The translations under genes were made by a program, and so were the position numbers. 55,970 nt of DNA from a bacterium (GTDB lineage Bacteria; UBP15; UBA6099; JAJRTR01): contig JAJRTR010000073.1 in NCBI GenBank assembly GCA_024278215.1, positions 1 to 55,970 on the forward strand, written 5' to 3'. The notes under the pieces are model-generated. The model made no database searches. It had not been told where the DNA came from and saw nothing but the letters and a program-made list of their open reading frames with translations. Shown here one piece after another: positions 7,865-44,680 of this stretch. The stretch's first letter is position 1. Each line of letters starts with the position of its first letter.

Positions 7865-7867
7865 AGA

Positions 7868-20400: not shown

Positions 20401-23400
20401 ATGATGTCGATTTCGCCGATACAGGCGATTCGCTGCTCGACAATGTCCAATATACTATATGGTCCGCCGCTTCGATGGCGGGTACGGAACTCGTTTCGTG
20501 GACTGATATCGCCGATAACATTGATTCCATTTCATACACGACCGACTGGGAGATAGACTTCGAATCCGCCACCTCCGGAGTGAATTACGTTTCAGTGCGC
20601 GCTTTCGATAATTTCGGGAATGTTTCAGATGTCGCGACGGACGTTTTTTATGTGAAAAAGGAGACATCGCCGCCCACAGTAACGGACAACCAGGGCGGCG
20701 ACGCCATCTGGCGGAACGCGGCGGGCACAACTTATGATGTCGATTTCGCCGACACGGGCGGTTCGCAACTTGCCGATGTCCAATATACTATATACGATGG
20801 GGCGGGGCAGGGCGGCTCTATGATACTTGGCTGGTCCGGCATCGCGACCGGCGTCGACGCCGATTCTTATACGACAGACTGGCAGATAGATTTCAACGCG
20901 GCCGCCACGGGTACTAATTACGTATCCGTCCGCGCGACCGACAATGCAGGTAATATTTCCGCCGTAGCCACGGACGTGTTTTATGTAAAAAAAGATACGG
21001 CGCTCCCGACAATAGATGATCAAGTGAGCGGCGACGACAACTGGTATGCCGCCGATCCGGGTGCGATTTATAATGTCGATTTCAATGACTCGGGCGGCTC
21101 GATGTTATCCGCCGCTTCTTATACCGTATATACGGGTACAGGCATGTCCGGTTCGCAAGTCATCTCCTGGGCAACTATCGCAGCCGGCATCGGCTCCGAC
21201 TCATATACAGATAACTGGGGTATAGATTTTGCTTCGTTGCCGTTCGGCATCTCCTATATTTCCGTCAGGGCAGCAGATAACGCTCAGAACAGTTCGGGCG
21301 TCGTTCAGGATGTGTTTTACGTGCGGAAGACGCAGATCGCAATGTCGCTCTCATCATATCCCTCCGGAAGCAACAACACGACAGATATAAAAGCGGGCGA
21401 CCTGGACGGCGACGGTGATCTCGATATCATCGAAGGAAACACCGCCCAGACTAATATGGTATGGCTCGGAGACGGAACCGGTGGCTTCACACAGTTGGTT
21501 TCAGTCATGGGGTCTTACTACACGCAATCTGTTTTTATCGCCGACCTCGACAACGACGGCGACCTCGATGTCGTCTGTGGAAACGCATCAGCGGGCGATG
21601 TGAAAAACCGGGTATGGTTCAATGACGGCGTCGCGAATTTTACCGATGCGGGCCTGAACGACAGCCTGGGTTCGAGCGATACTATGTCCGTATTCGCGGC
21701 GGACCTGGACCGTGACGGCGATATGGATTTCATCGCGGGCAATTATGCGCAGGCCGATAAAGTATGGATAAATGACGGTGCAGGCGCGTTCGCTGATTCC
21801 GGGCAATCACTCGGTTCGTATAATACAAATTCAATATTCGGTATTGATGTCGACGGCGACGGCGATATGGATTTTATCGAGGGCAATAATGGAGCGGACA
21901 GAATCCTGCTCAACGACGGTGCCGCCTCGTTTACAGACTCCGGCCAGAGCCTGGGACTTGCTGATACGAAACATATATATTCCACAGACATCGATGCCGA
22001 CGGTGATGCCGACATAATCGCGGCCAATTACGGTGACGATAAAATATGGTTGAATGACGGCGGCGGTATGTTCACGGATTCCGGGCAGTCGCTTTCGTCG
22101 GGTCTGACGGATTCATTCGCGGCGGGCGACCTGGACGGCGACGGCGATTCTGATTTCATCACCGGTCGCGACGGTACGGATTACATCTGGATAAACGACG
22201 GTTCCGGTACGTTCTCCGCGAATGCGCAGACATTTCTATCAATACCTTCTGACGCTGTCGAAGCTCTGGATATGGACGGTGATGGAGACCTGGATATATA
22301 CGTCGGGCGTTATCAATCGAACAATCGTGTTTATATTAACAATAACAACCATGCCAACGCTGCGCCGATCGCGCCTGCGCTTGTTGGCGAACCGACGCAG
22401 GAATTGTCTTCCGACGACGCTGTCGATGTGACACTCGAATGGACCGGCGGAAGCGATGCCGAGACAGGCGACACCGACCTTCTGACTTATGACGTGCGTG
22501 TCGGTACAACAGGCGGCGGCTGCGAAGTTTTCTGCGGCTGGTTTCCGAAAACGGCGGCATGGCTCGGGCATCGGCCCGGCAACGCGGGCGCGACACACGG
22601 TATTTCGTTGTCGCTTCCGCTCGGCAGCTATTACTGGTCGGTGCGCACGGTGGACACAACATTTAAGGCGAGTTCGTGGGCTGCTGAAGATACGTTCACT
22701 CTTTTTCGCCCAGTATTTGTCGATTCCGGCCAGGAACTCGGGAGCGGAGATACGAACGAATTGTGTGTCGCGGATTTCACAGGCAACGGCCACATGGATT
22801 TTGTCGCGGTCGACGATTCCTCAAATGACCTGTTGTGGGTTAATTTCGAGAATGGAACTTTCAGCGACTCCGGCCAGGGCATGAACGCTGCTTATTCCGT
22901 CGACGTATCATGCGCCGACATCGACGGCGATTCCGATATAGACTACATAGTTGCGTTATCGGGAAATTCAAATATTGTTTGGAAGAACAACGGCACAGGA
23001 ACATTTTCTCAGTCCACATCTTTTGATTCGTCCGACACTGAAGGTGTTGTCTTTGCGGATGTCGATAATGACGGCGATGTCGATGTGATAGATGGGAACA
23101 GCGGTACGGGAAACACTGTGTTCCTGAATGACGGAAGCGGTTCTTTTTCGGATTCCGGACAGTCGCTCGGTGTCAGTAACACTACAGATGTTTTTATAGC
23201 CGATCTGGACTCCGATGGCGACAAAGACATTTATGAATCGAATGATGGAGCGGGCAACGTCGTATGGATGAACGATGGAACAGGCGTTTTCTCCGACTCG
23301 GGCCAGTCTCTAGGGACAGATACGACGACGAAGTCTTTTGGAGCGGATGTCGACGGCGATGGTGATATCGACATGATTGAAGGCAATACGCCGGGAGCGC

Positions 23401-25865
23401 CCAACAGAGTAAGGATCAACGACGGTGCGGGTGTTTTCTCCGGCACAGGCGGAGAATACGGCGGCAGCGACACAACAGCTGTTTATCCCGGCGATATCGA
23501 TGTGGACGGCGACTATGATTTCATCGCGGGCAACACGGCGCAGGGAAACGTCGTGTGGTTCAACAGCGCGGGCGTGTTTTCGGATGCCGGTAATTCGCTC
23601 GGCAGCAGCCTGACAAATACTGTTGTACTTGTCGACGTGGACGGCGACGGGGGCCTTGACTATATCGAAGGCAACGGATCCGGCCCCGATAGAATATGGT
23701 TCAATAACCTCGACACGCCGAACACGAATCCTTCGCCGCCCGCTCCGACTGCTCAGCCGGATTACGAAACGGCTTCCATGACGGTTTCCGTAACGCTCGA
23801 GTGGCCGGACGGAACCGACGCCGAAACTGCGGCCGCCGGACTATTGACTTATGAGGTGCGAGTCGGCACGAGCAGCGGAGCCTGCGACATATTATGCGCC
23901 GCGAAAGAGCGTAACCTGACAGCCGGACCCGGCAGCGGGCCGGGAGTGTTCGGACCTATGAACACGCTCGACCTCGATCTCGCATCCGGCACTTATTACT
24001 GGTCGCTGCGTACGGTCGATCCTACATATTACAGGAGCGCGTGGAGCGCCGAGGATTCGTTCTCTATTACTGTCGACAGCACTGCTCCTTCGACGATAAC
24101 GACCGTCAACGACGGCCTCGGCGACGACATCGACTTTTCTACCGATACTGCCTCCTTTTCCGCAAACTGGAGTGAAGCCGCAGACGGTGAGACTTCCATC
24201 GCGCGCTACTGGTACAGCATCGGCACAAGCGCGGGCGCGTCCGATACCGTAGGCTGGACGGATAACGGAACAGCAACATCGGTAACTGTTACGGGACTAA
24301 GTCTCACAGGTGGCCTGACATATTATATATCCGTGAAGGCCGAGAACGGCGCGGGGCTCATAGGCAATCCCGCCGTCTCCGACGGGCTTCTTGTGGACGG
24401 GACATTACCGTCGGCGGTTGCCTTCGTTTACGACGGCGCGGTTGACGGTGCCGACATTGATTTCTCTTCATCCTCATCCCGGCTTTCCGCAAACTGGGCG
24501 ACTTCATCCGATGATGAAACAAGCATCGCCGGTTACTGGTACAGCATCGGCACAAACGCGGGCGCCTCCGATACTGTGCCATGGACCGACAACGCCGCTT
24601 CCACTTCTGTCACCCTTTCTTCTCTTTCTCTCGCAAATGGACAAACTTATTTTTTCTCTGTGAAAGCCGAAAACGGCGCGGGCGCTTTCGGCAGCGTTGA
24701 AACTTCCGACGGGGCGACTGTAGACTGGACTGCGCCCGATGCTGTTCTGGTCGTTTACGACGGCACGGGTGCCGACATCGATTATTCAACCGACACAACA
24801 CAACTATCCGCAAACTGGAGCGCCGCGTCCGATCCCGAATCGGGCATCCTTTCCTACACATACTCGATAGGAACGACGGTGGGCGCGTGCGACGTTGTTT
24901 CCTGGACGGACAACGCTTCAGGCACATCCGTGACCCACACCGGGTTGTCTCTCGCGGACGGACAGGTTTACTTCTTCAGTGTCAGGGCGTTGAACTATGC
25001 CGGACTTTATTCCTCGAAGGTGTTTTCAGACGGTGTGACCATAAATATTTCAGGTCCGGGCGAAGTTGCAGACCTTATGGCCGATCCGGCAATATCCGAG
25101 ATACTTCTGAGTTGGACGAATCCCGCGGACACAGACTTTGCGGGCACAATAATAATGAGAAGTCAGGTTTCTTACCCTTCGAACGCTTCGGAAGGCACTC
25201 GAATATGCGACGAAGCAACAAACGAATTCTGCACCGATGAGACGAGTCTCGCACAGGGACTCACATATTATTATTCAGCTTTTGCTTATGATATTGCAGG
25301 CAATTATTCGACAGCCGCAGGCGAGGGTGCGCGTGCCACGGCTTCTCTTATTACACCCGGCCTGACAATATATTCCGGCTGGAACGCCGCAGGCATTTCG
25401 CTCGATCAGGTTTATATCGACCTCGCCGCGGTTTTCCCATCCGGCGATTATACGATTATCCGCTGCGACGGCCCGGTGACGAATTACGATGGATACATAA
25501 ATGCCACGGGCACCATACAACTCGATTACGCGGGCGGCTACTGGATATTCTCAGGTGAAGATATAGGTGTTGTCGATTACACAGGCGGAAACGCGCAGAC
25601 GGAAAACTACTACCAGATTTCACTTGCCGCCGGTTGGAATATGTTCTCGCTTCCTTATAACAGTGAGATCGAATGGAACGACACGAACGCCGCCCTCGAA
25701 TGCGGCGGCACAGGCACGTCGCTTCCCACTGTTTACTACTACGACAACAGTACAGGAGAATACACGGAAATCGAAGGTGGAGCCGGGAAGTCACTCATGC
25801 CGTGGAGAGGCTACTGGGTCGAAGTGAATGAGTCATGTACATTGACAATTAATAAACCGCAATAG
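17493..25865 (+). CDS. Giant secreted FG-GAP/VCBS-repeat protein with FN3-like domains (adhesin/surface protein)
   Basis: Signal peptide; 28 DxDxDGDxD-type motifs in four blocks of 7; FN3-like modules; C-terminal GWN...GYW domain; TGCTATAAT upstream. Confidence 0.88.
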   Translation: MISYCRYLYTTIIILTLVIVLPARLYAFTDSGQSIGSGNVLSAAVGDIDGDGDPDLITGLNTLGDKLFLNSGGTLTDSGQALDPGDTSGIFIFDVDGDGDLDYVAGNLNGNGGLWLNDGTGTFSDSGLSVGNSTYSFYAVDLDMDGDYDLLEGTDNGVSNKAWLNNGGGVFTDSGRSFDTSTYAAVAGSDLDGDGDTDFVAAVLGSLPNKVWKNNGTGIFTDSGQTLGACDSSSVAIYDFDADGDADVFFGNVGASNTVWLNDGSGVLTDSGQATGASDTYSVAGADMDGDGDYDVISGNANPISGMPNTFWINNGSGVFTDSGEEIGDNDSFAIALSDFDADGDIDIFDGNLSASSALFINDNNHANTTPTAPPLTAEPDIVILEATAAITLEWGAGSDAEAADTDLLTYDLRVGTSAGACDVYCGTFPTVGVSPYHSVLPGNAGAALSHIVALATGTYYWSVRTVDTTYKASAWSVDDSFIVRPIYTDSGQSFDGANTFAVHPLDADGDGDVDFIETIYLDDDVLWKNDGAGTFTKVTQVWNDMNELDGCTADIDGDGDIDFISANNAAQSNRVWKNDGSGTFTDTGQALGSGRTYDCVTVDVDSDGDYDLVAANENGDPNKLYKNNGTGVFSDTLQSMGAEYTMEVVAGDFDDDGDEDVVFANRYAPSQLWLNDGTGALTDSGQAIGSDEARSVFAADTDADGDADILIGYDNATDRIFINDGSATFSDSGQSLVSPKTRSVHVIDVDIDGDLDIIAGNYNAGDKVWYNDGSGNFNDSFMSLGTGETQSIFAVDVDGDGDTDIIEGNSSGEGCAVWENILDPSNTAPSAPSITTKADTIIPGTATVTFEWSDGSDPETADADLLTYDIRIGTSSGGCEAFCGSLPWSGAVPWRNTGPGAMGATGSFSIIMSTGTYYWSMRTVDPASLAGAWGTEDSFVLIQDDAAAPTVIDNQDGDDTWRNAAGTTYDVDFADTGDSLLDNVQYTIWSAASMAGTELVSWTDIADNIDSISYTTDWEIDFESATSGVNYVSVRAFDNFGNVSDVATDVFYVKKETSPPTVTDNQGGDAIWRNAAGTTYDVDFADTGGSQLADVQYTIYDGAGQGGSMILGWSGIATGVDADSYTTDWQIDFNAAATGTNYVSVRATDNAGNISAVATDVFYVKKDTALPTIDDQVSGDDNWYAADPGAIYNVDFNDSGGSMLSAASYTVYTGTGMSGSQVISWATIAAGIGSDSYTDNWGIDFASLPFGISYISVRAADNAQNSSGVVQDVFYVRKTQIAMSLSSYPSGSNNTTDIKAGDLDGDGDLDIIEGNTAQTNMVWLGDGTGGFTQLVSVMGSYYTQSVFIADLDNDGDLDVVCGNASAGDVKNRVWFNDGVANFTDAGLNDSLGSSDTMSVFAADLDRDGDMDFIAGNYAQADKVWINDGAGAFADSGQSLGSYNTNSIFGIDVDGDGDMDFIEGNNGADRILLNDGAASFTDSGQSLGLADTKHIYSTDIDADGDADIIAANYGDDKIWLNDGGGMFTDSGQSLSSGLTDSFAAGDLDGDGDSDFITGRDGTDYIWINDGSGTFSANAQTFLSIPSDAVEALDMDGDGDLDIYVGRYQSNNRVYINNNNHANAAPIAPALVGEPTQELSSDDAVDVTLEWTGGSDAETGDTDLLTYDVRVGTTGGGCEVFCGWFPKTAAWLGHRPGNAGATHGISLSLPLGSYYWSVRTVDTTFKASSWAAEDTFTLFRPVFVDSGQELGSGDTNELCVADFTGNGHMDFVAVDDSSNDLLWVNFENGTFSDSGQGMNAAYSVDVSCADIDGDSDIDYIVALSGNSNIVWKNNGTGTFSQSTSFDSSDTEGVVFADVDNDGDVDVIDGNSGTGNTVFLNDGSGSFSDSGQSLGVSNTTDVFIADLDSDGDKDIYESNDGAGNVVWMNDGTGVFSDSGQSLGTDTTTKSFGADVDGDGDIDMIEGNTPGAPNRVRINDGAGVFSGTGGEYGGSDTTAVYPGDIDVDGDYDFIAGNTAQGNVVWFNSAGVFSDAGNSLGSSLTNTVVLVDVDGDGGLDYIEGNGSGPDRIWFNNLDTPNTNPSPPAPTAQPDYETASMTVSVTLEWPDGTDAETAAAGLLTYEVRVGTSSGACDILCAAKERNLTAGPGSGPGVFGPMNTLDLDLASGTYYWSLRTVDPTYYRSAWSAEDSFSITVDSTAPSTITTVNDGLGDDIDFSTDTASFSANWSEAADGETSIARYWYSIGTSAGASDTVGWTDNGTATSVTVTGLSLTGGLTYYISVKAENGAGLIGNPAVSDGLLVDGTLPSAVAFVYDGAVDGADIDFSSSSSRLSANWATSSDDETSIAGYWYSIGTNAGASDTVPWTDNAASTSVTLSSLSLANGQTYFFSVKAENGAGAFGSVETSDGATVDWTAPDAVLVVYDGTGADIDYSTDTTQLSANWSAASDPESGILSYTYSIGTTVGACDVVSWTDNASGTSVTHTGLSLADGQVYFFSVRALNYAGLYSSKVFSDGVTINISGPGEVADLMADPAISEILLSWTNPADTDFAGTIIMRSQVSYPSNASEGTRICDEATNEFCTDETSLAQGLTYYYSAFAYDIAGNYSTAAGEGARATASLITPGLTIYSGWNAAGISLDQVYIDLAAVFPSGDYTIIRCDGPVTNYDGYINATGTIQLDYAGGYWIFSGEDIGVVDYTGGNAQTENYYQISLAAGWNMFSLPYNSEIEWNDTNAALECGGTGTSLPTVYYYDNSTGEYTEIEGGAGKSLMPWRGYWVEVNESCTLTINKPQ
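20330..21330 (+). repeat. Three tandem ~111-aa (333-bp) domains inside the giant CDS
   Basis: PT..DNQ.GD..W.....YDVDF...DVFYV(K/R)K three times; units 1 and 2 are near-identical in DNA over long stretches. Confidence 0.85.
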
Positions 25866-32278: not shown

Positions 32279-32758
32279 TCACACCGGTTCGAAGTGATCG
32301 ACATCAAGGATCGTGTTGGTTGTTTCATCGGCGAAAACGGCTTTGACTTTCATACCGAGCTCGACCTTGCCGGGCTCGATGCCTTCGAGTATGTGCGGCA
32401 GGGGAGTGTCCGCGCCCCCGAGTTTTATCATAGCGAGAATATATGGCGGCTTGCGCGGCAGGTGTTTGTCTTCGTAGTTGACCACAGTGTAGTTGGTGAG
32501 CTCGCCGGTGTCGGAGAGTTCGACCCAACTGTCGCTGAGGTCTTCCATGCAGCGTTCGCAACGCTGACGAGGCGGCACGAAAACCCTGTTGCATTTTTCG
32601 CATTTTACGCCAAGTATCTGCTTTTTGTCGCGCAGCGCGATCAGGAATCTGCTGCCGACGCGGCCCGCGAAATACTGATATGGAAGCGCCAGTTTGCCGT
32701 CTCTTATATAACAATGTTCGTGCTTGTCGTCTTTTTGTCTTAGTTTCTGTCTTGCCAT
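32279..32758 (-). CDS. DUF35 Zn-ribbon/OB-fold protein
   Basis: CEKC..VFVPPRQRCERC, GELTNYTVV, GMKVKAVF; GGAGG RBS. Confidence 0.9.
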   Translation of the reverse strand: MARQKLRQKDDKHEHCYIRDGKLALPYQYFAGRVGSRFLIALRDKKQILGVKCEKCNRVFVPPRQRCERCMEDLSDSWVELSDTGELTNYTVVNYEDKHLPRKPPYILAMIKLGGADTPLPHILEGIEPGKVELGMKVKAVFADETTNTILDVDHFEPV

Positions 32759-32769
32759 TTGCTGCCTCC

Positions 32770-33930
32770 TCATCTCACCTTTTCAAAATAGAGGATATCG
32801 TTGACGGAGCCGGTTCGCTCGTCCGCCCACACGGGCCTCACCCGGTCGCCGGGCTGCGCATCGAAAAGGTCGTTCTTCTTCAGCATGTGCCAGAAAGTTT
32901 CATTGTCTTTGCAACCGTCCAGCAGGACATGCAGGCTGCCGTAAGGTGTTTCACGTGTTTCGCCCGTCAGGGGGTCGGGGCTGGCATAGTATGTGTCGTC
33001 GATCATGGTGATCTCGCCCCCGGGGCCTACCTCGACAAACTCGTCCGCCCGGCACCTGCACGGCGCGCACACCTCGCGCGGCGGCAACTGTTTCCTGCCG
33101 CACTTCGGACACACGTTCGCCAGTATCTTCTTTTCCATCAGGCCTTCGAAAAACTGTCCCATCACAGGTCCGGTCGAGTATTCCATGTCGACTGAAATGA
33201 TCTTTTTCAGCACTATGAGTTCTTCGACCGCTTCCGCTTCTTCGGACGGTACAAATTTCGCGAAGATTTTGGGCAGTTTCATCGCGAGTTCCATATCGCC
33301 CACAAGCTTTAGTCTGCCCGAGCCGAAAGCGACCATCGGATCGAGTTTGCCCAGCATCAGATCGACGTAATCTTCAGCGCTGACGATGTTGCTGACCGTC
33401 AGGTTGTCGCGCAGGCCCTCTTCGAGCGTGCATTTGCCGTCCTTTATGACAGCGGTCCATTGGCCGCCGCCCTTGCCCGTGAAATCGTAGCCGACAGTAA
33501 CGTCGAGTTCCTGCGCGTACTGCGGCTGGAAGCGATCGACGGCTGTTTCGATGATGTCGCGTGCAGTGATGGGTTTTTTCGGCGGCACATATTTGGTGAA
33601 CATCTGCGGCAGCCTGAGCAGCATCGCCATGTCGCCTTCGGCCCTGACGCGGCCCGCCTGGAAAGCTTCCATGCCGTCGATGCGACCGACCGTCATGCCG
33701 ACGAAAGTTTCCGCGTCCGTAATCATTTTCGCAGTGAATTCGGCGGGGAGGCTGTCGAGTTTTTTAGTTTCGGACTTGCCGCCTCCGATGGCGACCATCC
33801 ATCGGCCGCCGCCGGCGCCGCTTATGTCATAGGCGATAACGGCGTCTACGCCTTCCGCGCCCTCGGGCCGGAACCGTTCCGTCTGTGTACTGAAAATATC
33901 ATCAACTGTAGTTCCGAAATATTCTGCCAT
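32770..33930 (-). CDS. SCP2-SCP2-DUF35 fusion protein
   Basis: Two SCP2 domains (GGGRW...AFQAGRVRAEGDM; GGGQW...AFGSGRLKLVGDM), then CPKC..LPPREVCAPC OB fold. Confidence 0.88.
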   Translation of the reverse strand: MAEYFGTTVDDIFSTQTERFRPEGAEGVDAVIAYDISGAGGGRWMVAIGGGKSETKKLDSLPAEFTAKMITDAETFVGMTVGRIDGMEAFQAGRVRAEGDMAMLLRLPQMFTKYVPPKKPITARDIIETAVDRFQPQYAQELDVTVGYDFTGKGGGQWTAVIKDGKCTLEEGLRDNLTVSNIVSAEDYVDLMLGKLDPMVAFGSGRLKLVGDMELAMKLPKIFAKFVPSEEAEAVEELIVLKKIISVDMEYSTGPVMGQFFEGLMEKKILANVCPKCGRKQLPPREVCAPCRCRADEFVEVGPGGEITMIDDTYYASPDPLTGETRETPYGSLHVLLDGCKDNETFWHMLKKNDLFDAQPGDRVRPVWADERTGSVNDILYFEKVR

Positions 33931-33940
33931 AGTATCCTCC

Positions 33941-35137
33941 TCACCAGTCCAGGTCTTTTTCGAGCATCGTGAGCACAGTCCAGAGAGTGCCGCCGAAACC
34001 CGAGGCCAGCGCGTGTTTCACTTCGCTGGGAATCTGATGTCCACCCGCGTCGCCGCGAATCTGTAGCGCGGCCTCGGCGACACGAACCATGGCCGTAGCG
34101 CCTATCGGGTTCGCGGCCACGACACCGCCGGATGGGTTCAACGGCAGCCTGCCGCCGATCTTCAACTCGTCGTTCTCGACCATCTTCAGATGTTCGTCGC
34201 CTTCGAGCAACATGAACTCGCGGAGCCAGTCGAGGCCCCACCAGGACGACGGGTCGTACATCTCGAACACATCGAAGTAATCGACCGGATTGTCGATGCC
34301 GTTGCGCTCGAACAACTTTCGCGCGGCGAAGCGGTGGGTCGTCTCTTCGCGTTCGGCGTCTTCTTTTCCGAAAAGATTGAATGTTTCTTCGCGATGTATC
34401 GTGATATGGTCGCGTATCCAGACGGGTTTGTCGCTCAGTTCCTTTGCCTTTTCTTCGGAGGCAAATATCATGGCGCAGGCACCGTCGCTCTGTGAGCACA
34501 TGTGAATGAGACGCAGTTCGCCGACGAGTTTGGGTGAATTCTCCATCAGGTCGTCGAGCTGGTCGTAGTCGAGACCGAAGCTGCGGTGCGAGTTCGGGTT
34601 GAGCATAGCGTGCTTATCCATGTCGATGCGAAGTTTCATCGCGGCGCGGCGTGCGCGTTCTTCGCCGAATTCGCGGATCATAGCGCCTGCGGTCGCGCCG
34701 GTGAGCGCGCCGGTCTGAAGGTTGCGGGACCATAGCGGATCGGCCATGTTCGTAATGCCGCCGGTCGTGTGGCCTTCCTGTAGTTTTTCGAAACCGACGG
34801 CGAGTACGATGTCGTACATGCCTGAGGCGACAAGGTTGTCCGCGGCGCATACGAGCGTGGCACCTGTCGTGCCGCCTGTCGTAACGCGGTATGCGTCCTT
34901 GCCGTATGCGCCGGTGCCGATTGTGTGCCACAGGTCCGGCTGGTGGACCATCTCGAATAGTTCCATGTTGCCGTGCACGACGCAGTCGATGTCGTCGTAG
35001 GTCAGGCCAGCGTCTTCGAGAGCGAACCGCACGGCTTCGTTTATCATTTCCGGTTGATTGACATCTTCGCGGTGGCTGGAGTACTGCGTCTGCCCGATGC
35101 CGATTATACCAACATTCCTGTTTCTCTTATGGCTCAA
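33941..35137 (-). CDS. Thiolase-fold protein, Ltp3-like (aldolase subunit candidate)
   Basis: GIGQT, RVTTGGTTG (no nucleophilic Cys), GFEK, SDGA, EMYDP, NPSGG..ANPIGAT. Confidence 0.8.
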   Translation of the reverse strand: MSHKRNRNVGIIGIGQTQYSSHREDVNQPEMINEAVRFALEDAGLTYDDIDCVVHGNMELFEMVHQPDLWHTIGTGAYGKDAYRVTTGGTTGATLVCAADNLVASGMYDIVLAVGFEKLQEGHTTGGITNMADPLWSRNLQTGALTGATAGAMIREFGEERARRAAMKLRIDMDKHAMLNPNSHRSFGLDYDQLDDLMENSPKLVGELRLIHMCSQSDGACAMIFASEEKAKELSDKPVWIRDHITIHREETFNLFGKEDAEREETTHRFAARKLFERNGIDNPVDYFDVFEMYDPSSWWGLDWLREFMLLEGDEHLKMVENDELKIGGRLPLNPSGGVVAANPIGATAMVRVAEAALQIRGDAGGHQIPSEVKHALASGFGGTLWTVLTMLEKDLDW

Positions 35138-35150
35138 TGTGTGACCTCCT

Positions 35151-36299
35151 TTACTCGGAATCGAGAACGAGCACGGAATGGAATTGGCCGGCCGCGCCGG
35201 TCGTCCCGTGAGCGAGGGCTTTCTTAGCGCCTTCGACCTGCCGGTCGCCGGCTTCGCCGCGGAGTTGTATTACGGCTTCAGCGGCGCGGGCGAGACCGCC
35301 TATCATCAGTGGGTTGCCCGCAAGCATGCCGCCCGATTTGTTCACGTTGCATGTTTTGAGTCCGCCGCCGTCGATCAGGGCGCTGCCTTTGCCTTCGCCG
35401 CACAGTCCGAGTCCTTCGAGCCACATCGGCGTCTGGTAAGCGAAGCAGTCGTTGACTTCCACGAGGTCGAACTCCTCGGCGGGGTTCTTCACGCCTGCTT
35501 TCCTGTAAGCGCGTTCGGCGGCTTTTTTCAGCGAGAAGTTACCGACGAGGTCTTTGTCGCCGAGGAAATAGCTGTCCATGCAGTTGGCGAAACCGCTGAT
35601 CCAGACCGGTTTATCTGTGAATTCCGAGGCGCGCTCTTCGCACACGAGCAGCATGGCGACAGCGCCGTCTGAGACCGGGTATTCATGAAGAAGGCGGATG
35701 GGATCGCACGTCATCGGCGATTTAAGCACCTGCTCTTCGGTCAGCAATTCCCTGGCGTTCGCCGCCGGGTTGAGGGCGGCGTTTTTCCTTGAGTTGACGA
35801 CCACCTTCGCGAGGTGCTCGTCGGTGACACCGGATTTGTTCATATAGGCGCGAGCCTGGAGCGCGGCGACATTCTTAAAGTCCAGTCCCAGCGGCCTGTA
35901 GTAGAACGGATCGAAAGCCAGGTTTGTGACCATATCGCGGCTTTCGGACTGCGATTCCTTGCAGTGGCCGACTATCAGAATGATATCGTCGTGACCCGAC
36001 AACACGCAGGCGAGCCCGTAGCCGATGGCGTTTATTCCATCCATCGTTACCTTCTCTTCGCCCCTGTAATGAGCGCCGACAGCATCGGTCATAGCGTTGT
36101 CGGAGATAGTGCGGGCGTCGAAAACATCGTCCGAGCATGTGATAATATTCCTTATACCGGTGGCCATGTCGAAAGTGACGCCGGTTTTCCGGATTATCGG
36201 TTCCACGATGTCGAACGCCATCTCCTGGAAGCGCTTTTGCCACAGATTGGTGAAGAAACCAGTCTGTTCGACAGCGCAGACAGCAACACGTTTTCCCAT
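35151..36299 (-). CDS. Thiolase-fold protein, Ltp4-like
   Basis: CSDDVFDARTIS, KVTMDG, PVSDGA, NKSGGMLAGNPLMIGGL. Confidence 0.78.
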   Translation of the reverse strand: MGKRVAVCAVEQTGFFTNLWQKRFQEMAFDIVEPIIRKTGVTFDMATGIRNIITCSDDVFDARTISDNAMTDAVGAHYRGEEKVTMDGINAIGYGLACVLSGHDDIILIVGHCKESQSESRDMVTNLAFDPFYYRPLGLDFKNVAALQARAYMNKSGVTDEHLAKVVVNSRKNAALNPAANARELLTEEQVLKSPMTCDPIRLLHEYPVSDGAVAMLLVCEERASEFTDKPVWISGFANCMDSYFLGDKDLVGNFSLKKAAERAYRKAGVKNPAEEFDLVEVNDCFAYQTPMWLEGLGLCGEGKGSALIDGGGLKTCNVNKSGGMLAGNPLMIGGLARAAEAVIQLRGEAGDRQVEGAKKALAHGTTGAAGQFHSVLVLDSE

Positions 36300-36403: not shown

Positions 36404-36955
36404 TTACCGCGCGAAGCAGTTCCAGAAGCGGCCTTTTTTTATGGCGCGGATAATAGAGTCCTTGTTGCGTTTGCAGTCCATCTCGATCCAGGCGCGACCA
36501 CAGCCGGCGCGTGTGTGTGAATCGTCCACGACCAGTTTTGGATATTTTATCTCCGGCGTGTCGAATTCCTTATCGAGAAAACCCTTGGTTGTTATCTCGA
36601 CAGCGTCGAGAGGATAGCGTTTTTCCAGCGCGTGGAGCCGGTCCATAATCTGCTCGAACGACAGGTCGTATTCGCCGAGATGGCAGAAGACGTGAAGCTG
36701 CTCTTCGTCGCCGAAAATCTGGGTTACATGAACGTAGCCTTTCTCGAAAACCGTATGCTCGATGCCCCGAAAAATTATCAAGTCGGTTTCCACAGCATCG
36801 AAAATCCGCTCGTGTGCGGGTTTCAGGAGATAGTCATGATCGGTGAAAGCGATAAAATCGAAACCGAGTTCCGAATAGACATCGGCGACCTGTTGGGGCG
36901 TCAGTTTCCCATCCGAGCAGGTAGTGTGGCAGTGGAGACCGCCTTTCAGTATCAT
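36404..36955 (-). CDS. Short PHP-domain metallophosphoesterase
   Basis: [22 protein letters not shown]. Confidence 0.85.
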
Positions 36956-37319: not shown

Positions 37320-37492
37320 TTATGTGTGAGGATTTCTATGACATGGTTGAAATTCAATTCTCGAATGGATTTCAGTCCTGGATTTAAACTGATTATGTGT
37401 GGTTGCGATTCCTTTTACCACCGCAAATAGTTGTGCTATTATAAAGTGACTGATTTCATGCGGTTACAATTTCCGAAAGGAATAATATTCTG

Positions 37493-40400
37493 ATGACGGA
37501 TGAGCAGAGAAATTTCGCGGAATACAATCGCCCGGAGCTGGCGAAGCTGCTGACGGCCTTGAGGCTGGATGTGGAATATGTGCGGGGGCGTGGCGATTAT
37601 CTTTATTACAAGAACGAAAAAGGTGAAGAAGTCGAAGTGCTGGACCTCGCGGGCGGCATGGGGTCGACCGTGCTCGGACACAACAATCCCGAGATAAAAG
37701 AAGTCATGCAATCATGTATCGACAACGATGTGCCTATGCACGCGCAGGGTTCGTTTCGCGAGTCGGCCGGCAGGCTGGGCAGGAAGCTGTCCGAGCTGTA
37801 TCCCGGCAAGGAAAAGCGGGTCACGATTCTATGCAATTCCGGCACCGAAGCGGTCGAGTGCGCGCTCAAACACGCAGAGTTCAACCGCATGTTGCGGTTC
37901 CGGGAGATCGGCAGGGACATCTACCGTAATTATAAGGAGATGAAAGAATATTTCAGGATGCACTCGAACCTGAAACTGCCGAAAAAATATGCTGAAAAGG
38001 GCGCTGAGGCGCTGCTCAACGATATCCTTCTCCAGACACAGGTGCTCGAACAACTGCCGCCGGTAGTGATCTCGACAGAGAAATCGTTCCACGGGAAAAC
38101 CACCGGGGCGCTGCGTGTTACAGGCAGCACGATGTACCGCGAAGCGTTCCAGCGACTCAGCGGCATCGACGCGAGATTCATCGAATTCAACAACCTCGAC
38201 GATCTGAAAAAAGTACTCGAAAAGAGCTATTTCACTATAAAGAAGATCACAGTGGACGACGGCGTTGTGAAACTTGTCGGCCGCCGGTACCTGAACGTGA
38301 CGGCGTTTATAATGGAGCTGATACAGGGCGAGGGCGGCATAAATGTCGCTACGCGCGATTTCGTGCGCGGCATTGTTAAACTGCGCAAGCAACACGGCTT
38401 CGAATGGATCGTCGACGAGATACAGACGGGCCTTGGCCGCACGGGAAAACTTTTCTGCATCGAGAATTATGCCGTAGACAAAGACGCGGTCGATTACATG
38501 GTGTTGTCGAAGGCGCTGGGCGGCGCCACGCACAAAGTAGGCGCTATGCTCGTGCGTGAGTCGATACACAACAGCCGGTTCGGCATCCTGCACACTTCAA
38601 CATTCGCCGAGGACTCACCCGGTTGCATGGTTGCCCTCAAGGCACTCGAGATCACTACGGCCAACAAAGGCGAGGCATTCAGGATGGCCGCCGAAAAAGG
38701 CAACTACATGAAGGCGAAGCTCAAGGAGATAAAAAAGGAATACCCGGACATTATCAGGGAAGTGCGCGGCATGGGACTGATGATCGGGGTCGATTTCCAT
38801 ATCTTCAAAGAAAGCAATTCGCTGTTCTTCAACCGGTGCAGCAAGCAGGGCGTTTTCGCATCGGTTCTCGCGGGCTACCTTCTGCACGAGCACAGAATCC
38901 GCACAGCGCCGCCGCTCAATTCGCTTGTCGCGGCCCGACCGATGAATGTATTGCGCATCGAGCCGTCGGTTTATATTTCCCGCAAGGATATGGACCGTGT
39001 GATATTCGCTATACGGCGCGCCTGCAAGATCGTCCGCAGGGCCAACGCCTACGAATTCAGCAAGTTTGTAATCGGCAAAGAGACGCCCGGCAAGTACGGC
39101 AGGATAGAAGACTACTCCGGTCCGGCATACAAGCCGCCCGTCGATCCGGAATTCGAGAAATGCCGCCGGATGGCTTTCCTTATCCACCCGCTGGACATCC
39201 ACCAGGTGATGGAGGACTTTGACAGGTCTCTGAGCGGATTCTCCAGGGAGAAGGACCCGGAGACGGGACTGAGCGAACGCGAACGTTACTGGGACATCAT
39301 CGTACCGCTGCTCGATTCGTTTGTGTTCAGAGTCGTACATGTGAAATCGCCGCGAACGGGCGACAGGGTCAAAGCCCATTTCATCGGGTTCCTCTACACG
39401 ACGCAACAGATGGTGAAACTTCGCAAAACCAACCCGGAAGTCCTGATCGAGGGCATACAGAAGGCCGTCGACCTGGGCGCGAGCCTGGGCGCGGAAGTAT
39501 GCGGGCTCGGCGCTTTCACTTCGATCGTAACACACAACGGCACGGATATGGACGATACATACATCAATATCACGAGCGGCAATTCGTACACGGCCGCGCT
39601 GGTGTGGCAGAGTGTGCTCAAGGCGGCGGATTATGCCGGTCTGAAACTCGACGAGTGTACGGGCGCAGTGGTCGGAGCGGGCGGCAACATAGGCAGTGTT
39701 TGCGCAAGCCTGCTGTCCGAGGACATACCACGTCTGTTGCTGATAGGCAGCAGAAAATCGCAGACGGTCGACAGGCTTCGCGAAGTCGCTTATTCCATCT
39801 ATTCTGACAGTGTCGACATAATCCGCACAGCCCGCCCGCAGGACCTCAAGGGCCTCCCGGCCGCGCTCGCCCGGGACCTCGTGCTGCCGTTCGCCGCTCT
39901 TAACTCCCGGGAATACCGCTTCAAAGAAAAAGCGATTAACAATTTTATCGAAAAAAATTATTCGGGCAAAGACCAGAAAATCGGACACCTTGTGAAATCT
40001 ATTTTCTACTCGCGTCCCGATTCCGACATTGGCCGCAAGGTCTACCAGGCTATTCAGCTCAAGCACGGGACCGATCCTTATATCACACTGACAACCAACC
40101 TGAAAAGATATATTCCGCAGGCCGACGTGATCATTTCCGCCGTAAGTGCCGACAGGTCCATCATGGATGTGAAGTGGTTCAAGCCCGGCGCGGTTGTGAA
40201 CGACGCGAGCCTGCCGCCAAGCATATCGACTCAGCTCTACAAAGAACGCCCCGACGTGATCGCCACGCAGGGCGGGGTCGGCCACCTGCCCGAGTACATC
40301 AACCTCGGCATACCAGGACTCGCCGCAGGCGCCACTCTCGGATGTATGGCCGAAACATTCATCCTGACAATGATGCACATGGCCGACAACTACAGCTTCG

Positions 40401-40543
40401 GCAGAATCACAAAACAGCAGGTTGTGAAAATATGGGAGGCCGGCAAAATCCTCGGATTCGGCATCGCAGCAATCAAATATATGGGTAACAAAAAACTCAC
40501 ACGAGACATAGCCGCGGAAATTATGCGCAAATCAGAAAAGTGA
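37493..40543 (+). CDS. Class III aminotransferase fused to an acyl-thioester reductase (TamH-like fatty-amine synthase candidate)
   Basis: NSGTEAVE, SFHGKT, ELIQGEGG, DEIQTGLGRTG, LSKALGG; then FLIHPL, GLGAFTSIV, TSGNSYT, VVGAGGNIG, GCMAET. Confidence 0.85.
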   Translation: MTDEQRNFAEYNRPELAKLLTALRLDVEYVRGRGDYLYYKNEKGEEVEVLDLAGGMGSTVLGHNNPEIKEVMQSCIDNDVPMHAQGSFRESAGRLGRKLSELYPGKEKRVTILCNSGTEAVECALKHAEFNRMLRFREIGRDIYRNYKEMKEYFRMHSNLKLPKKYAEKGAEALLNDILLQTQVLEQLPPVVISTEKSFHGKTTGALRVTGSTMYREAFQRLSGIDARFIEFNNLDDLKKVLEKSYFTIKKITVDDGVVKLVGRRYLNVTAFIMELIQGEGGINVATRDFVRGIVKLRKQHGFEWIVDEIQTGLGRTGKLFCIENYAVDKDAVDYMVLSKALGGATHKVGAMLVRESIHNSRFGILHTSTFAEDSPGCMVALKALEITTANKGEAFRMAAEKGNYMKAKLKEIKKEYPDIIREVRGMGLMIGVDFHIFKESNSLFFNRCSKQGVFASVLAGYLLHEHRIRTAPPLNSLVAARPMNVLRIEPSVYISRKDMDRVIFAIRRACKIVRRANAYEFSKFVIGKETPGKYGRIEDYSGPAYKPPVDPEFEKCRRMAFLIHPLDIHQVMEDFDRSLSGFSREKDPETGLSERERYWDIIVPLLDSFVFRVVHVKSPRTGDRVKAHFIGFLYTTQQMVKLRKTNPEVLIEGIQKAVDLGASLGAEVCGLGAFTSIVTHNGTDMDDTYINITSGNSYTAALVWQSVLKAADYAGLKLDECTGAVVGAGGNIGSVCASLLSEDIPRLLLIGSRKSQTVDRLREVAYSIYSDSVDIIRTARPQDLKGLPAALARDLVLPFAALNSREYRFKEKAINNFIEKNYSGKDQKIGHLVKSIFYSRPDSDIGRKVYQAIQLKHGTDPYITLTTNLKRYIPQADVIISAVSADRSIMDVKWFKPGAVVNDASLPPSISTQLYKERPDVIATQGGVGHLPEYINLGIPGLAAGATLGCMAETFILTMMHMADNYSFGRITKQQVVKIWEAGKILGFGIAAIKYMGNKKLTRDIAAEIMRKSEK

Positions 40544-40627
40544 ATGTGTCGCGAAAAACAGGAATCAGGCACTTAGGCCGATTTTCGCAACAACCGCCTG
40601 TCGCTTACGGCAGACCAAGGAATTAAA

Positions 40628-42250
40628 GTGAGTCCCGACTGCACTACAGATTCAAGGTCAAATTTCTCGACAGCATACCTCGTCGCCTTCTTCATATTCT
40701 TCGCGGCTTTCTATGCGCTATTCGTTCGCGGCATACCTCCGAACGGCGACCCGGTCAATTATTTTGTTGTCGCTCAGAACCTTGTGGAAACCGGCACGTT
40801 CGGAATGGAAAAGAATCAGTACGTGCCGCTCGAGCAAGGGCGGGACGGGGCGTATTACTCGAAGTTCGCGCCCGGTCAATCTCTTCTCGAAGCACCTTTT
40901 TACGCACTCGGCAGGATGGTAGCGCCGTCAACTGATGATCAACGTTATCTCTACGCATTCAAATATTTTGTCTCTGTTTTGTGTGTGCCGCCGGTGTCCG
41001 CGCTCACACTTATTTTTTTCATGTTGACGATTCAACTGCTGGGTTATGATCGGCGCACCGCGATCCTTTCGACTTTGCTGCTCGGACTCGGCACAATGAT
41101 GTGGCCTTATGCCAGACTCGGTTTCAGCGAACCGCTTCAGGCCTGCGCGATTGCGGCGGGTTTCTACTATTCGACACGTGCGAGAAGAGAGGGGAGTTTG
41201 ACTGCGGCGGCTTTTGCCGGTGCCGCGATAGGGATGCTTCTGCTGACAAAAGTGTCGGCGGCAATTGTAGCGCCCGGATTCGCTTTGTATCTCATTACGG
41301 GAGCACACGGCCAGAAAAAAAGGTTCAGAGCCGCGATGCTGTTTTCGCTTGTTTTTCTCATTTTTCTATGCCTTTCTCTTGCATACAACCAGTTGCGATT
41401 CGGCGAACTGTTGAATTTCGGGTATTTCAGCGGCAAAGATGCCTCATTCGGCTTTAATGTAAACTGCCTGTCCGGTTTATACGGATTCCTGTTCAGTCCT
41501 GGAAAGAGTATATTCCTGTACGCGCCTGCCGTGTTGCTGTCGTTGTGGGGCGCGCGGCGGCTGCAAAGCGATCATGGCGATGTGAGCACACTTGTATGGT
41601 TCTGCGTGGCGTCGCACCTGGCGGTGTACTGCCGCTGGTGGGCGTGGCACGGCGACTGGAGCTGGGGGCCTCGCTTTCTTGTGCCGCTCATGCCGCTGCT
41701 TATGATACCTGCCGCCGCCCTGGTTGCGACCTTAAAAGAATCTGTTTTTATCCACAGATTCGCATTCATCACGATTGTTGTCGTTTCGTTTTTCATACAG
41801 ACGCTCGGCGTCGCGGTTAATCCTTATGAATACATTATGATCACACGTCACCAGGTGCCCCATGGACCGTTTTTCACACCTGGCCGCGAGGACCTGCGCG
41901 ACGACCAGACCGGCATTCACTTTGTCCCGGATTTCTCACCTGTTGCCGGCCACTGGTGGCTTCTGAAACATACAATAACCGGCGCGGGCCGGACAGCAGA
42001 GCAACAGCGTGCCGCGATGCAGAAAGATTTTCCGTGGCGCGGGCTGATGCGCTATGCCGTGCCGCCGCACCCGGAGCGCGGCGCGGTATTCGATTTCTGG
42101 TGGGTTTATTTTCCCGAATATTTCCCCGAGTCGACAACGTGGGTGAAAGTGTTTCTGATGTCTTTGCTCTTTATGGTTATTACTGTCCCGCTATTCGGAT
42201 TTATCGCGAAAAGGAGAGCGAATAAGTTTGCATCGGAAATCGAGCCGTGA
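40628..42250 (+). CDS. GT-C fold membrane glycosyltransferase (ArnT/PMT-like)
   Basis: Many TM helices; N-terminal loop Asp (GDPVNY), YSKF.PGQS, FSEP, WHGDWSWGPRFL. Confidence 0.7.
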   Translation: MSPDCTTDSRSNFSTAYLVAFFIFFAAFYALFVRGIPPNGDPVNYFVVAQNLVETGTFGMEKNQYVPLEQGRDGAYYSKFAPGQSLLEAPFYALGRMVAPSTDDQRYLYAFKYFVSVLCVPPVSALTLIFFMLTIQLLGYDRRTAILSTLLLGLGTMMWPYARLGFSEPLQACAIAAGFYYSTRARREGSLTAAAFAGAAIGMLLLTKVSAAIVAPGFALYLITGAHGQKKRFRAAMLFSLVFLIFLCLSLAYNQLRFGELLNFGYFSGKDASFGFNVNCLSGLYGFLFSPGKSIFLYAPAVLLSLWGARRLQSDHGDVSTLVWFCVASHLAVYCRWWAWHGDWSWGPRFLVPLMPLLMIPAAALVATLKESVFIHRFAFITIVVVSFFIQTLGVAVNPYEYIMITRHQVPHGPFFTPGREDLRDDQTGIHFVPDFSPVAGHWWLLKHTITGAGRTAEQQRAAMQKDFPWRGLMRYAVPPHPERGAVFDFWWVYFPEYFPESTTWVKVFLMSLLFMVITVPLFGFIAKRRANKFASEIEP

Positions 42251-42308: not shown

Positions 42309-43508
42309 TTACCGTTTATAAAATGAAACTATGCGCGTCAGCGCGTCCACGACATCCTGCACGTCGCGTCGCGTCATTTTAGGGAACAGGGGCAGTGTGA
42401 TAATCGATTCGCTGATCTCTTCGCAGACAGGAAAATCTTCACGCTTCAAATTCAGCGCGCGCTCGAAATACGAATGCCTGTATATCGGCCTGTAATGGAT
42501 ATTGGCATAAATATTTTCCGTACGCAACGCTGAAAGCACCCTGTCGCGGTCCACCCGCAACGCGCCCGGCGTGATGCGAATCACATACAGGTGATGTGAC
42601 GATTTCGAGCCGGGCGTCAGGACCGGTTTTATCAATTCGTCGACACCCGAAAACGCCTCATTGTAGAAATCGACATAAGAAGCTCTTAGCCTGTTGAACT
42701 CATTGATTTTGCCGAGCTGCACGAGCCCTATTGCCGCGCAGATATCCGGCATGTTGCACTTGAATCCGGGCGCGGAGACATCGTACTGCCATGGTTTATC
42801 GCTGTCCGCGCGGCTGTAGGCGTCATTATCTATCCCGAAGAAACTCAGCGCCTTCGCCTTCGATGCGAGTCCGGCGTCATCCGTTGTGATCATGCCGCCT
42901 TCGACGCTTGTCATATTCTTTATCGCATGAAAACTGAAACATGTCATGTCTCCGAAAGTGCCTATCCTTCGTCCCCTGTACTCTGCGCCGACTGCGTGAG
43001 CGCCGTCCTCGATCACCTTCAATCCGTGCTGTTTCGCGATGGCCGTAATATCGTCCATATCGGCGGGATTACCGGCATAATGCACCGGGATAATCGCCTT
43101 CGTTTTTCCCGTTATCTTTTTCTCAATCGAAGCCGGATCGATATTGTATGTGTCCATCTTTATATCCGCGAGCACAGGCGTCGCACCGCTATAAATGATT
43201 GATAAAACCGTGGCGGCAAATGTCAGAGGAGTCGTAATCACCTCGTCGCCCGGTCCGACGCCGAGAGCTGCTACAGACACAGTGAGCGCGCCGGTGCATG
43301 AGTTCAAGCCCACCGCATACTTCGCGCCGACATAACCGGCGAAGGCATCCTGAAACTCGGCGGTTCGCGGTCCGGTTGTTATCCACACGGACTTCAGCGT
43401 CTCGACAACGGCAGCGATCTCTTCCTCGCCGATCCACTGCGTTGCATAAGGAAGCGGTTCAGTGCGAACGGGCGTTCCGCCCTCGATTGCGGGTTTATCT
43501 ATAGCCAT
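42309..43508 (-). CDS. DegT/DnrJ/EryC1/StrS nucleotide-sugar aminotransferase (SpsC/PseC/ArnB-like)
   Basis: WITTGP, NSCTGAL, PVHYAG, EDGAHA, FSFHAIKNMTSVEGG, LPLFP. Confidence 0.93.
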   Translation of the reverse strand: MAIDKPAIEGGTPVRTEPLPYATQWIGEEEIAAVVETLKSVWITTGPRTAEFQDAFAGYVGAKYAVGLNSCTGALTVSVAALGVGPGDEVITTPLTFAATVLSIIYSGATPVLADIKMDTYNIDPASIEKKITGKTKAIIPVHYAGNPADMDDITAIAKQHGLKVIEDGAHAVGAEYRGRRIGTFGDMTCFSFHAIKNMTSVEGGMITTDDAGLASKAKALSFFGIDNDAYSRADSDKPWQYDVSAPGFKCNMPDICAAIGLVQLGKINEFNRLRASYVDFYNEAFSGVDELIKPVLTPGSKSSHHLYVIRITPGALRVDRDRVLSALRTENIYANIHYRPIYRHSYFERALNLKREDFPVCEEISESIITLPLFPKMTRRDVQDVVDALTRIVSFYKR

Positions 43509-44488
43509 TTGGAATTCTTCTCAGCAATAAGTTTTTCGAGCCACTTTCTTGTGCGCCCAAGTCCGTCTTCGATATCGACGCGGGGTCTCCATCCAAGTAC
43601 TTTCTGCGCTGCGGAACTGTCCCCGCACAGCTTCATTATTTCACTCTGAGGATGTATGTGCTTTATTCGCCTGATCTTCGAGCCTGTTTTATCGGGTGCC
43701 GAATCGACGACTGTACGCGCAAGTTTATTTATAGTAATATCGCTGCCCGTGGCGGCGTTCAGAGTGCGCCCCCACACCTTGCCCGACGTCGACGCGCGTA
43801 GCAGGAAATCGGCGCAGTCTTCGACATACAGCAAATCTCGTGTCTGGTGTCCCGTCCCATATATAAGGAGGTCTTCACCCCTGATCTGGCGAGTTAGAAA
43901 GATCGAAACCACCCCACCCTCACCCGTCGCCTTCTGGTGTGGTCCATACGTGTTGAACGGCCTTAGCACCGCAGTCGGCATACCATAGGCATGATAATAA
44001 GAAATCGTCATGTTTTCACCAGCCAGCTTCGCGCCCGCATAAGGCGAACGAGGCAGCACAGGATGCGTTTCATCTATCGCGCCTTCCGGCTTCGACAGAT
44101 CATATACCATGCACGTGCTCATGAAAACGAACTTCGTTCCTGCCGCACGACACGCTTCGAGCAGATAAAATGTGCCGTCCACATCCGACTCGAACGTCCG
44201 CACGGGATCGTCAATACTGTCCTGGACGACTATCTGAGCCGCAAGATGCAGGCAGATATCCGGCTTGATCTTCGCAACGAGGCCCCCCACCATTTTTCTC
44301 TGGCGTATGCTGCCTTTCTTCACTTCGGCAAGTCGAGGTTCATTCGCGAATTCCGCAAGATTCTCACGCAGTCCGTTCGAGAAATCATCAAGGACATATA
44401 CCCTGTGCGGCGTATCGTCGAGAAACGCTTTGACGACCCACCTGCCGATGAAGCCCGCTCCGCCTGTTATAAGTACGTTTTTTTTCAT
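43499..44488 (-). CDS. NAD-dependent nucleotide-sugar epimerase/dehydratase
   Basis: ITGGAGFIG, HLAAQ, STCMVY, YAGAK, RPFNTYGP. Confidence 0.92.
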   Translation of the reverse strand: MKKNVLITGGAGFIGRWVVKAFLDDTPHRVYVLDDFSNGLRENLAEFANEPRLAEVKKGSIRQRKMVGGLVAKIKPDICLHLAAQIVVQDSIDDPVRTFESDVDGTFYLLEACRAAGTKFVFMSTCMVYDLSKPEGAIDETHPVLPRSPYAGAKLAGENMTISYYHAYGMPTAVLRPFNTYGPHQKATGEGGVVSIFLTRQIRGEDLLIYGTGHQTRDLLYVEDCADFLLRASTSGKVWGRTLNAATGSDITINKLARTVVDSAPDKTGSKIRRIKHIHPQSEIMKLCGDSSAAQKVLGWRPRVDIEDGLGRTRKWLEKLIAEKNSKWL

Positions 44489-44680
44489 AACGCTATTCCA
44501 GAAAAACCGAATGTATTTGCGCACGCACAGAAAAACCCAAATACCACGCATTCTTTAATATCGGCCATTATGCCCGGTTTATGAAATATCACGGAAAAAA
44601 AGATTGCACTGTGCTAAAATACATAATCGTGAAATCCTTGCCTGTGAATCGCACCGGCTGAACGGTTTGGGGATATCGAC

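Follow-up and report, generated by a model that had tools for sequence, protein, structure and literature searches.

What does an aminotransferase fused to an acyl-thioester reductase do in a bacterium when it lies outside any pigment cluster, and does it act together with the membrane glycosyltransferase encoded directly behind it? The question is raised by a contig of an uncultured bacterium (GTDB lineage UBP15; UBA6099; JAJRTR01; assembly GCA_024278215.1, contig JAJRTR010000073.1), analysed here as one stretch of 55,970 nucleotides (nt), which we call the window. An earlier interpretation made from the letters of this DNA (the sequence-only reading) had taken the gene for a 1016-amino-acid (aa) protein to be a TamH-like fatty-amine synthase and had proposed, from its GT-C glycosyltransferase neighbour, a pathway for an amino-lipid. 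In this work, sequence and structure comparison was combined with an analysis of gene neighbourhoods in related genomes. The identification of the enzyme as an aminotransferase-thioester reductase (TA-TR) fusion is sound, and an amino-glycolipid pathway is possible, although the support for it is thin and restricted to one lineage.

The reading frame of the fusion is unbroken, and all of the motifs listed for it earlier (LSKALGG, FLIHP, LGAFTSIV, TSGN, GAGGNIG and GCMAE) were found in its translation (Table 1). As proposed, the N-terminal half is a complete class III aminotransferase: besides the Pfam match, its top relative among the PDB sequences is CrmG (5dds, E 6.8e-70; residues 18-512 aligned). 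CrmG, a single-domain enzyme of the caerulomycin bipyridine pathway, is the closest solved relative of this half; the match spans nearly all of it and takes in the insertion that follows residue 125. Lys340, the predicted pyridoxal 5'-phosphate (PLP)-binding residue, pairs with the lysine of the CrmG motif LAKAIGG; across 24 close homologues it is invariant, as are G728, A729, G731, N732, I733 and G734 of the dinucleotide-binding motif and C951 of the reductase half. The top NCBIfam match of the whole fusion is PigE, at 344.5 bits against a curated cut-off of 850 bits for that model (NF053554).

The C-terminal half groups by both sequence and fold with the acyl-ACP (acyl carrier protein) reductase AAR, with PigE and with the TAD domain of carmabin biosynthesis, in agreement with the AAR-like call of the sequence-only reading. 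Taken alone, the C-terminal 476 residues scored 114.7 bits with the PigE model and 60 bits with the acyl-ACP reductase model TIGR04058, both below cut-off (449.7 bits for TIGR04058), and matched PigE (4ppm, E 2.9e-17) and AAR (6jzq, E 1.7e-9) among the PDB sequences. Cys951 is aligned with the cysteines of GCMAET in PigE and ACFAE in AAR and does not vary among the 41 reductase domains aligned (A2); the catalytic cysteine of AAR is Cys294, according to the parts of two reports available to us (PMC9594044; bioRxiv 10.1101/2024.10.28.620694). In a Foldseek search of the PDB, the AlphaFold model of the domain (predicted local distance difference test, pLDDT, 91.3; predicted template modelling score, pTM, 0.89) retrieved AAR first (6jzy_A, E 2.1e-17, template modelling (TM) score 0.79 on the target) and the carmabin TAD next (9e56_B, E 6.5e-17, TM 0.68), and the cysteine sits where the two lobes of the AAR fold meet. 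Shikimate and quinate dehydrogenases appeared only at E ~1e-4 and TM ~0.4, where they cover the Rossmann lobe alone, and Pfam Shikimate_DH reached 21.8 bits on the fusion, under its cut-off of 24.3. Since AAR stands ahead of these enzymes, the domain does not group with the shikimate and semialdehyde dehydrogenases, the outcome that had been named as fatal to the assignment.

Two features set the reductase half apart. The protein carries ~96 extra residues at the site of its helical insertion, at which AAR has ~11 residues and PigE ~34. In addition, R596, R621, D624 and D577 are invariant charged residues of the N-terminal subdomain of the reductase; in AAR and TamH this subdomain holds the alkyl chain, as stated in the accessible text of the TamH study (PMC9594044). 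Upstream, the promoter-like site listed in Table 1 ends ~50 nt 5' of the start of the fusion, and Rfam matched nothing between positions 36000 and 43000 at E values up to 0.1.

Table 1. Features of the fusion gene and of its neighbours in the window
Feature	Coordinates	Strand	Description and basis
Promoter-like site	37414..37442	+	TTTACC, 17 nt spacer, TATTAT, with TG; consensus match only
TA-TR fusion gene	37493..40543	+	1016 aa, class III aminotransferase and AAR-type thioester reductase
Aminotransferase domain	37571..38917	+	Pfam Aminotran_3, residues 27-475, E 3.8e-63
Lys340 codon (LSKALGG)	38510..38512	+	Predicted PLP-binding Lys; alignment to CrmG and invariance
Thioester-reductase domain	39164..40540	+	~Residues 558-1016; PDB sequence, NCBIfam and Foldseek matches
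GAGGNIG dinucleotide-binding motif	39674..39694	+	Residues 728-734
Five-helix insertion	39764..40066	+	~Residues 758-858, between Rossmann strands 2 and 3; model and alignments
Cys951 codon (GCMAE)	40343..40345	+	Predicted catalytic Cys; alignment and invariance
GT-C fold membrane glycosyltransferase	40628..42250	+	540 aa; AlphaFold and Foldseek
DegT/PseC/ArnB-type sugar aminotransferase	42309..43508	-	Convergent on the GT-C gene
NDP-sugar 4,6-dehydratase/epimerase	43499..44551	-	Overlaps the DegT gene by 10 nt

The fusion resembles several characterized systems, each in part. PtTamH, of the tambjamine YP1 pathway of Pseudoalteromonas tunicata, has the same order of an N-terminal transaminase and a C-terminal AAR-like reductase, which bears out the TamH architecture assigned earlier, and the same PLP lysine, GxxGxxG motif and catalytic cysteine, so far as the description of TamH available to us goes (PMC9594044). 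In contrast to PtTamH, the fusion has neither a tam/MBC cluster nor a TamA-type ANL-ACP partner that could be found, and its reductase part measures ~475 aa with the helical insertion, against ~395 aa in TamH. PigE, of the prodigiosin MAP branch (4ppm), is the top match in NCBIfam and, for the reductase half, among the PDB sequences, and has an identical GCMAET cysteine motif; however, PigE has the opposite domain order, in which the reductase comes first, pig genes are lacking here, and the score lies below cut-off. AAR (6jzy/6jzq) is the top structural match, with the catalytic cysteine and the nucleotide site aligned, but it is a stand-alone protein of 341 aa that partners ADO for alkane formation, has neither transaminase nor insertion, and shows 18% structure-based identity. 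The TAD of carmabin CarI (9e4s, 9e56) has the same two-lobed AAR-like fold and an invariant cysteine beside the NAD site, as presented in the portion of that preprint at hand (bioRxiv 10.1101/2024.10.28.620694); unlike the fusion, it is the last domain of nonribosomal peptide synthetase (NRPS) modules, and its structure-based identity is 13-14%. Pfam scans of 38 open reading frames (ORFs) of the window detected no polyketide synthase (PKS), NRPS, carrier-protein or AMP-binding domains and no genes of a bipyrrole (MBC) cluster, and the absence of pyrrole, NRPS and PKS genes noted earlier is thereby upheld.

On balance we lean towards a bifunctional enzyme of the TamH/PigE kind that would convert an acyl thioester to an aldehyde and then to a primary amine, outside the bipyrrole pathways and without a TamA-type loader. 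By analogy with the characterized relatives, an acyl thioester (acyl-ACP or acyl-coenzyme A, acyl-CoA) would be loaded onto Cys951 of the C-terminal domain; NAD(P)H bound at GAGGNIG would reduce the acyl-enzyme, with release of the free aldehyde; and the CrmG-like transaminase, with PLP on Lys340, would aminate the aldehyde at the expense of an amino acid donor. The homology of the domains, the conservation of the catalytic residues and the fold are direct observations, and the chemistry, its direction, the substrate and the donor are inferred. As far as the consulted text of the TamH study shows, TamH makes a C12 amine from acyl-TamA with NADH and glutamate, CrmG is cited there as a homologous class III omega-transaminase, and the authors remarked on distant homologues of unknown role (PMC9594044). 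PigE likewise reduces a thioester, in the section seen of PMC8341465, and the tambjamine route of Streptomyces is attributed to unrelated enzymes in the part seen of a recent preprint (bioRxiv 10.1101/2025.08.11.669332).

The architecture proved to be a stable possession of one uncultured order. A protein search returned 102 matches among 8000 scored candidates; 28 of them, at 58-83% identity, all come from records labelled only as uncultured "bacterium", and both active sites are kept in these 28 homologues. The remaining matches, at 24-37% identity, are spread over many phyla and include AMP-binding/TA/TR forms of 1463-1481 aa. Among species-representative genomes, a scan with the lone protein as query gave no confirmed relative; with an alignment (A1) as query, 316 of 367 pattern matches encode relatives, of which the best 80 were kept, 12 of them in the close clade. 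Of 12 genomes belonging to the order, 10 were found to encode the fusion, as against none of 18 more distant genomes. With the profile of the reductase domain, numerous proteins of ~360 aa that consist of this domain alone were retrieved as well, from Bacillota, Armatimonadota and other groups; the neighbours of stand-alone AAR-like genes in Nitrospira and Fimbriimonadales loci (L084, L085) were uninformative.

In the nearest outgroup (Gemmatimonadota/Polyangiaceae, 28-35% identity), a 613-aa AMP-binding enzyme is encoded directly 3' of the fusion in seven loci (L027, L043-L045, L052, L056 and L071), a pairing that fits a cassette leading from acid to thioester, aldehyde and amine. No carrier domain was found in this enzyme by Pfam at E up to 0.1. 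A 1510-aa ORF in L027 was considered as an AMP-binding fusion and rejected, as it has no such Pfam domain and is probably over-extended. When the genome of the window was searched with the outgroup partner, it showed only ordinary ligase-like AMP-binding genes; its PP-binding domains are confined to two small ORFs, neither on the window contig. A different setting was seen for TA-TR homologues of Oxalobacteraceae, Jeongeupia and Pseudoalteromonas (L022, L029, L031, L034-L039, L047, L062), whose loci share a ThiF-rhodanese protein, ThiS, a fatty-acid desaturase, a fatty-acid hydroxylase, a ferredoxin reductase, an MMPL-LolA-like exporter and an amino-acid permease; judged by gene content, this set looks like a lipid pathway, possibly sulfur-bearing, and not like a tambjamine cluster.

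The gene downstream of the fusion lies on the same strand after a gap of 84 nt, within which no plus-strand terminator-like site was seen. Its model (pLDDT 91.4) agrees with the GT-C fold proposed for it: the 41 best Foldseek matches in the PDB are all GT-C enzymes (TM 0.4-0.5), among them STT3/AglB/PglB, ALG9/12/3, ArnT, Pmt, AftB and Emb, and the scores with sequence models are weak (PMT_2, 22.1 bits versus 26.1; NF047440, 38.4 versus 200). Asp41, which belongs to the first extracytoplasmic loop, is shared without exception by 40 homologues and is presumably the catalytic acidic residue. The genome encodes four GT-C paralogs, of which this gene is one. The amino-sugar pair of a DegT-type aminotransferase and an epimerase was found to converge on it, as the sequence-only reading had it.

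That reading made the conservation of the fusion-GT-C linkage a test of the proposed pathway. A tblastn search with the window GT-C across 28 close-clade loci of the fusion gave a sole match, in L093, a locus from the metagenome scan, in which a fusion with 69% identity precedes a co-oriented GT-C gene with 49-50% identity and both flanks differ from those of the window. In addition, the match lists of the two proteins share four contig sizes from the same sources: 42819 (P0004/P0225), 7882 (P0005/P0231, which is L093), 6896 (P0006/P0226) and 8324 bp (P0007/P0229). The equal sizes, from which the gene order is deduced, suggest that the pair occurs on the three contigs of 42819, 6896 and 8324 bp as well, all in the subclade of the window. 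In a quick tree, the fusions P0004-P0007 together with P0001 and P0003 form this subclade (Shimodaira-Hasegawa-like approximate likelihood ratio test, SH-aLRT, 94), and in a FastTree phylogeny the linked GT-Cs group in a single clade (98) that excludes the unlinked ones. We read the pair as a cassette specific to this lineage; an operon and inherited gene order would both account for it. Within the subclade of the window, the fusion and the GT-C gene seem to be passed on as a two-gene unit, a hint that the product may belong to the envelope.

A series of observations weighs against an amine-forming enzyme of this kind that would serve a pathway shared with the GT-C. The fusion and its reductase half score far under the cut-offs of the PigE and AAR models (344.5 versus 850 and 60 versus 449.7 bits), identity to the proteobacterial TamH-like group is just 24-30%, and the reductase carries the ~96-residue insertion. 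A TamA-like ANL-ACP loader was not found in the genome, and TamH requires acyl-TamA and refuses acyl-CoA, according to the available portion of its description (PMC9594044). The invariant charged residues of the chain-binding subdomain leave room for a non-fatty substrate, and the eliminase partner of a paralogous fusion, described below, suggests that aldehydes may also arise in this lineage without the reductase. As to the GT-C, 17 distinct window-type loci remain after collapsing seven near-identical pairs and setting aside four distinct paralog-type loci, and the link is present in one of them (L093) and absent from the other 16. Moreover, among 12 genomes of the same order, nine contain both genes and carry them on different contigs in all nine cases, and G007, a 92% complete genome, has a GT-C orthologue without the fusion. 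The claim of a conserved linkage thus stands for L093 and, probably, for the further contigs of the subclade, and fails for the other 16 window-type loci and the nine related genomes.

These distributions bear directly on a simpler account, which we consider probable: the adjacency would reflect inherited gene order with no shared pathway, and the GT-C would take part in envelope glycosylation at large, possibly using the sugar made by the DegT and dehydratase enzymes. Apart from the unlinked genomes just described, G001, of the same family, has the fusion and no GT-C closer than 39%; linked pairs are restricted to one subclade in both the TA-TR and the GT-C tree; and Pfam scans of the window revealed no polyprenyl-phosphate glycosyltransferase of family GT2. 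None of the 12 genome loci of the fusion contains homologues of the GT-C, DegT, epimerase, PHP or thiolase proteins of the window, neighbour clustering of these loci yielded no conserved partner for the window-type gene, and the GT-C orthologue loci of six relatives contain neither the fusion nor the DegT and epimerase genes. In L108, the closest fragment, which matches the fusion at 83% identity across its final 96 residues, the next gene encodes a multi-pass membrane protein (320-1381) that is not a GT-C and ends in a GDS(A)-type SGNH-like motif. On the other side, the pair survives in L093 although both flanks differ, its genes in the window are separated by a short gap with no terminator-like site, and envelope-related genes recur, in varying combinations, beside the orthologues. 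These are Lnt, seen in two lineages, a cytidylyltransferase, shared by L096 and L011, and DegT and epimerase homologues (56-57% identical), which lie 3.8-6 kb 5' of the fusion in L096 only. Close DegT orthologues of five relatives are on contigs other than that of the fusion, and the DegT and epimerase genes are weak candidates for membership in its pathway. Other neighbours of orthologues include a GNAT protein in L096 and tetratricopeptide repeat (TPR) proteins in L013 and L105.

A second alternative keeps the chemistry and changes the substrate: a short, polar or amino-acid-derived thioester would be turned into a diamine, a polyamine precursor or a head-group amine instead of a long-chain alkylamine. 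Diamine synthesis uses aminotransferase/decarboxylase pairs. A PLP-dependent decarboxylase is encoded directly 3' of the fusion in the close-clade locus L012, and 127 Ralstonia megaplasmid records (Ralstonia solanacearum, H8-H30) carry a TA-TR homologue that lies beside a decarboxylase where annotated; these neighbours resemble the pairs of diamine synthesis. The charged residues R596, R621, D624 and D577, which fall in what is the alkyl-binding subdomain of AAR and TamH, would suit such a substrate, and fatty-acid genes were never a conserved neighbour in the loci compared. Nevertheless, the characterized AAR, TamH and PigE all act on acyl chains of C8-C18, and the nearest outgroup pairs with acyl-CoA-ligase-like enzymes; we rate this alternative as unlikely.

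Deinococcus is among the bacteria that make alkylamine lipids. In the passages available of two papers, the membrane phosphoglycolipids of Thermus are described as containing an N-glyceroyl alkylamine with a long-chain alkylamine base (PMC9636437), and alkylamine phosphoglycolipids are reported, by citation, from Bacillota as well (PMC13274423). The N-alkyl or glycosylated lipid that the sequence-only reading had called undescribed would accordingly belong to a type already known. Our literature search met no gene named, in the papers found, as the source of the amine of N-glyceroyl alkylamine lipids. We regard as improbable the combined reading in which the fusion makes a long-chain alkylamine from the fatty-acid pool, the GT-C incorporates it into an envelope glycolipid like the N-glyceroyl alkylamine lipids and, more generally, AAR-like reductases with class III transaminases are the source of bacterial lipid alkylamines. 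A long-chain fatty acyl substrate is itself a possibility of which no positive sign was seen; against it stand the missing loader, the invariant charged residues and the decarboxylase neighbours elsewhere. The sole hint connecting this organism with the N-glyceroyl alkylamine phosphoglycolipids is the sub-threshold TIGR04058 signal in the Thermus and Deinococcus controls. Matches below cut-off were recorded in the control genomes of Thermus thermophilus, Deinococcus radiodurans, Synechococcus and Methanocaldococcus jannaschii, the AAR model was silent in 10 other control genomes, and the plasmid search returned no Deinococcus or Thermus record.

The genome of the window (G000) holds a second copy of the fusion, 58% identical, on contig 151, where positions 6029-13057 (L006) encode a glycyl-radical enzyme of the eliminase type, its activase and the fusion paralog. 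The glycyl-radical enzyme, of 990 aa, belongs to the PFL2/dehydratase subfamily and has a ~200-aa N-terminal extension, a GCVEP cysteine loop and an RISGY glycine motif. The paralogs form one clade (support 100, quick tree), are encoded behind the glycyl-radical enzyme in 5/5 distinct loci (L006, L015/L099, L016, L098, L100/L101) and are separated from it by the activase in four of the five. Eliminase-type glycyl-radical enzymes release aldehydes, and the paralog module may handle aldehydes from other sources or run in reverse. Also in the window, divergent from the fusion, positions 32279-36299 (minus strand) encode a pair of thiolase-like proteins together with one protein of SCP2/zinc-ribbon type and one with a ChsH2-type OB fold, and a short PHP-domain ORF (36404-36955) stands between this cluster and the fusion.

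A catabolic role for the fusion of the window, in which the transaminase would turn an amine into an aldehyde and the cysteine domain, in the manner of a CoA-acylating aldehyde dehydrogenase, would oxidise the aldehyde to acyl-CoA, feeding fermentation or beta-oxidation in an anaerobe, could draw on the paralog with its 1,2-eliminase-type GCVEP partner, on the thiolase cluster and on the anaerobic life that glycyl-radical chemistry indicates, but is very doubtful: TamH and AAR run toward aldehyde or amine and PigE, in the section cited above, reduces a thioester (PMC8341465), the thiolase cluster is next to the fusion in none of the 12 related loci compared, and no amine transporter or regulator is conserved nearby in the loci compared.

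Two adjacent genes elsewhere in the window (13691-25865) encode a gingipain-like peptidase C25 protein of 1138 aa, which contains TPR repeats, and an FG-GAP/fibronectin-III repeat protein of 2790 aa.

Fusions of the TamH type are sought as single-protein ways to turn acids into amines and have so far been understood only within pigment pathways. In the clade described here the architecture occurs outside pigment clusters, in a gene that is conserved, and in many cases duplicated, across an entire uncultured order. The clade features a new helical insert, the lack of a carrier-protein partner and two lineage-specific partners, the GT-C and the glycyl-radical eliminase. Reverse operation together with the eliminase would make the enzyme a new aldehyde-handling module for anaerobes; if its product is a lipid amine, the clade would offer a candidate route to the alkylamines that bacteria build into amine-based membrane lipids.

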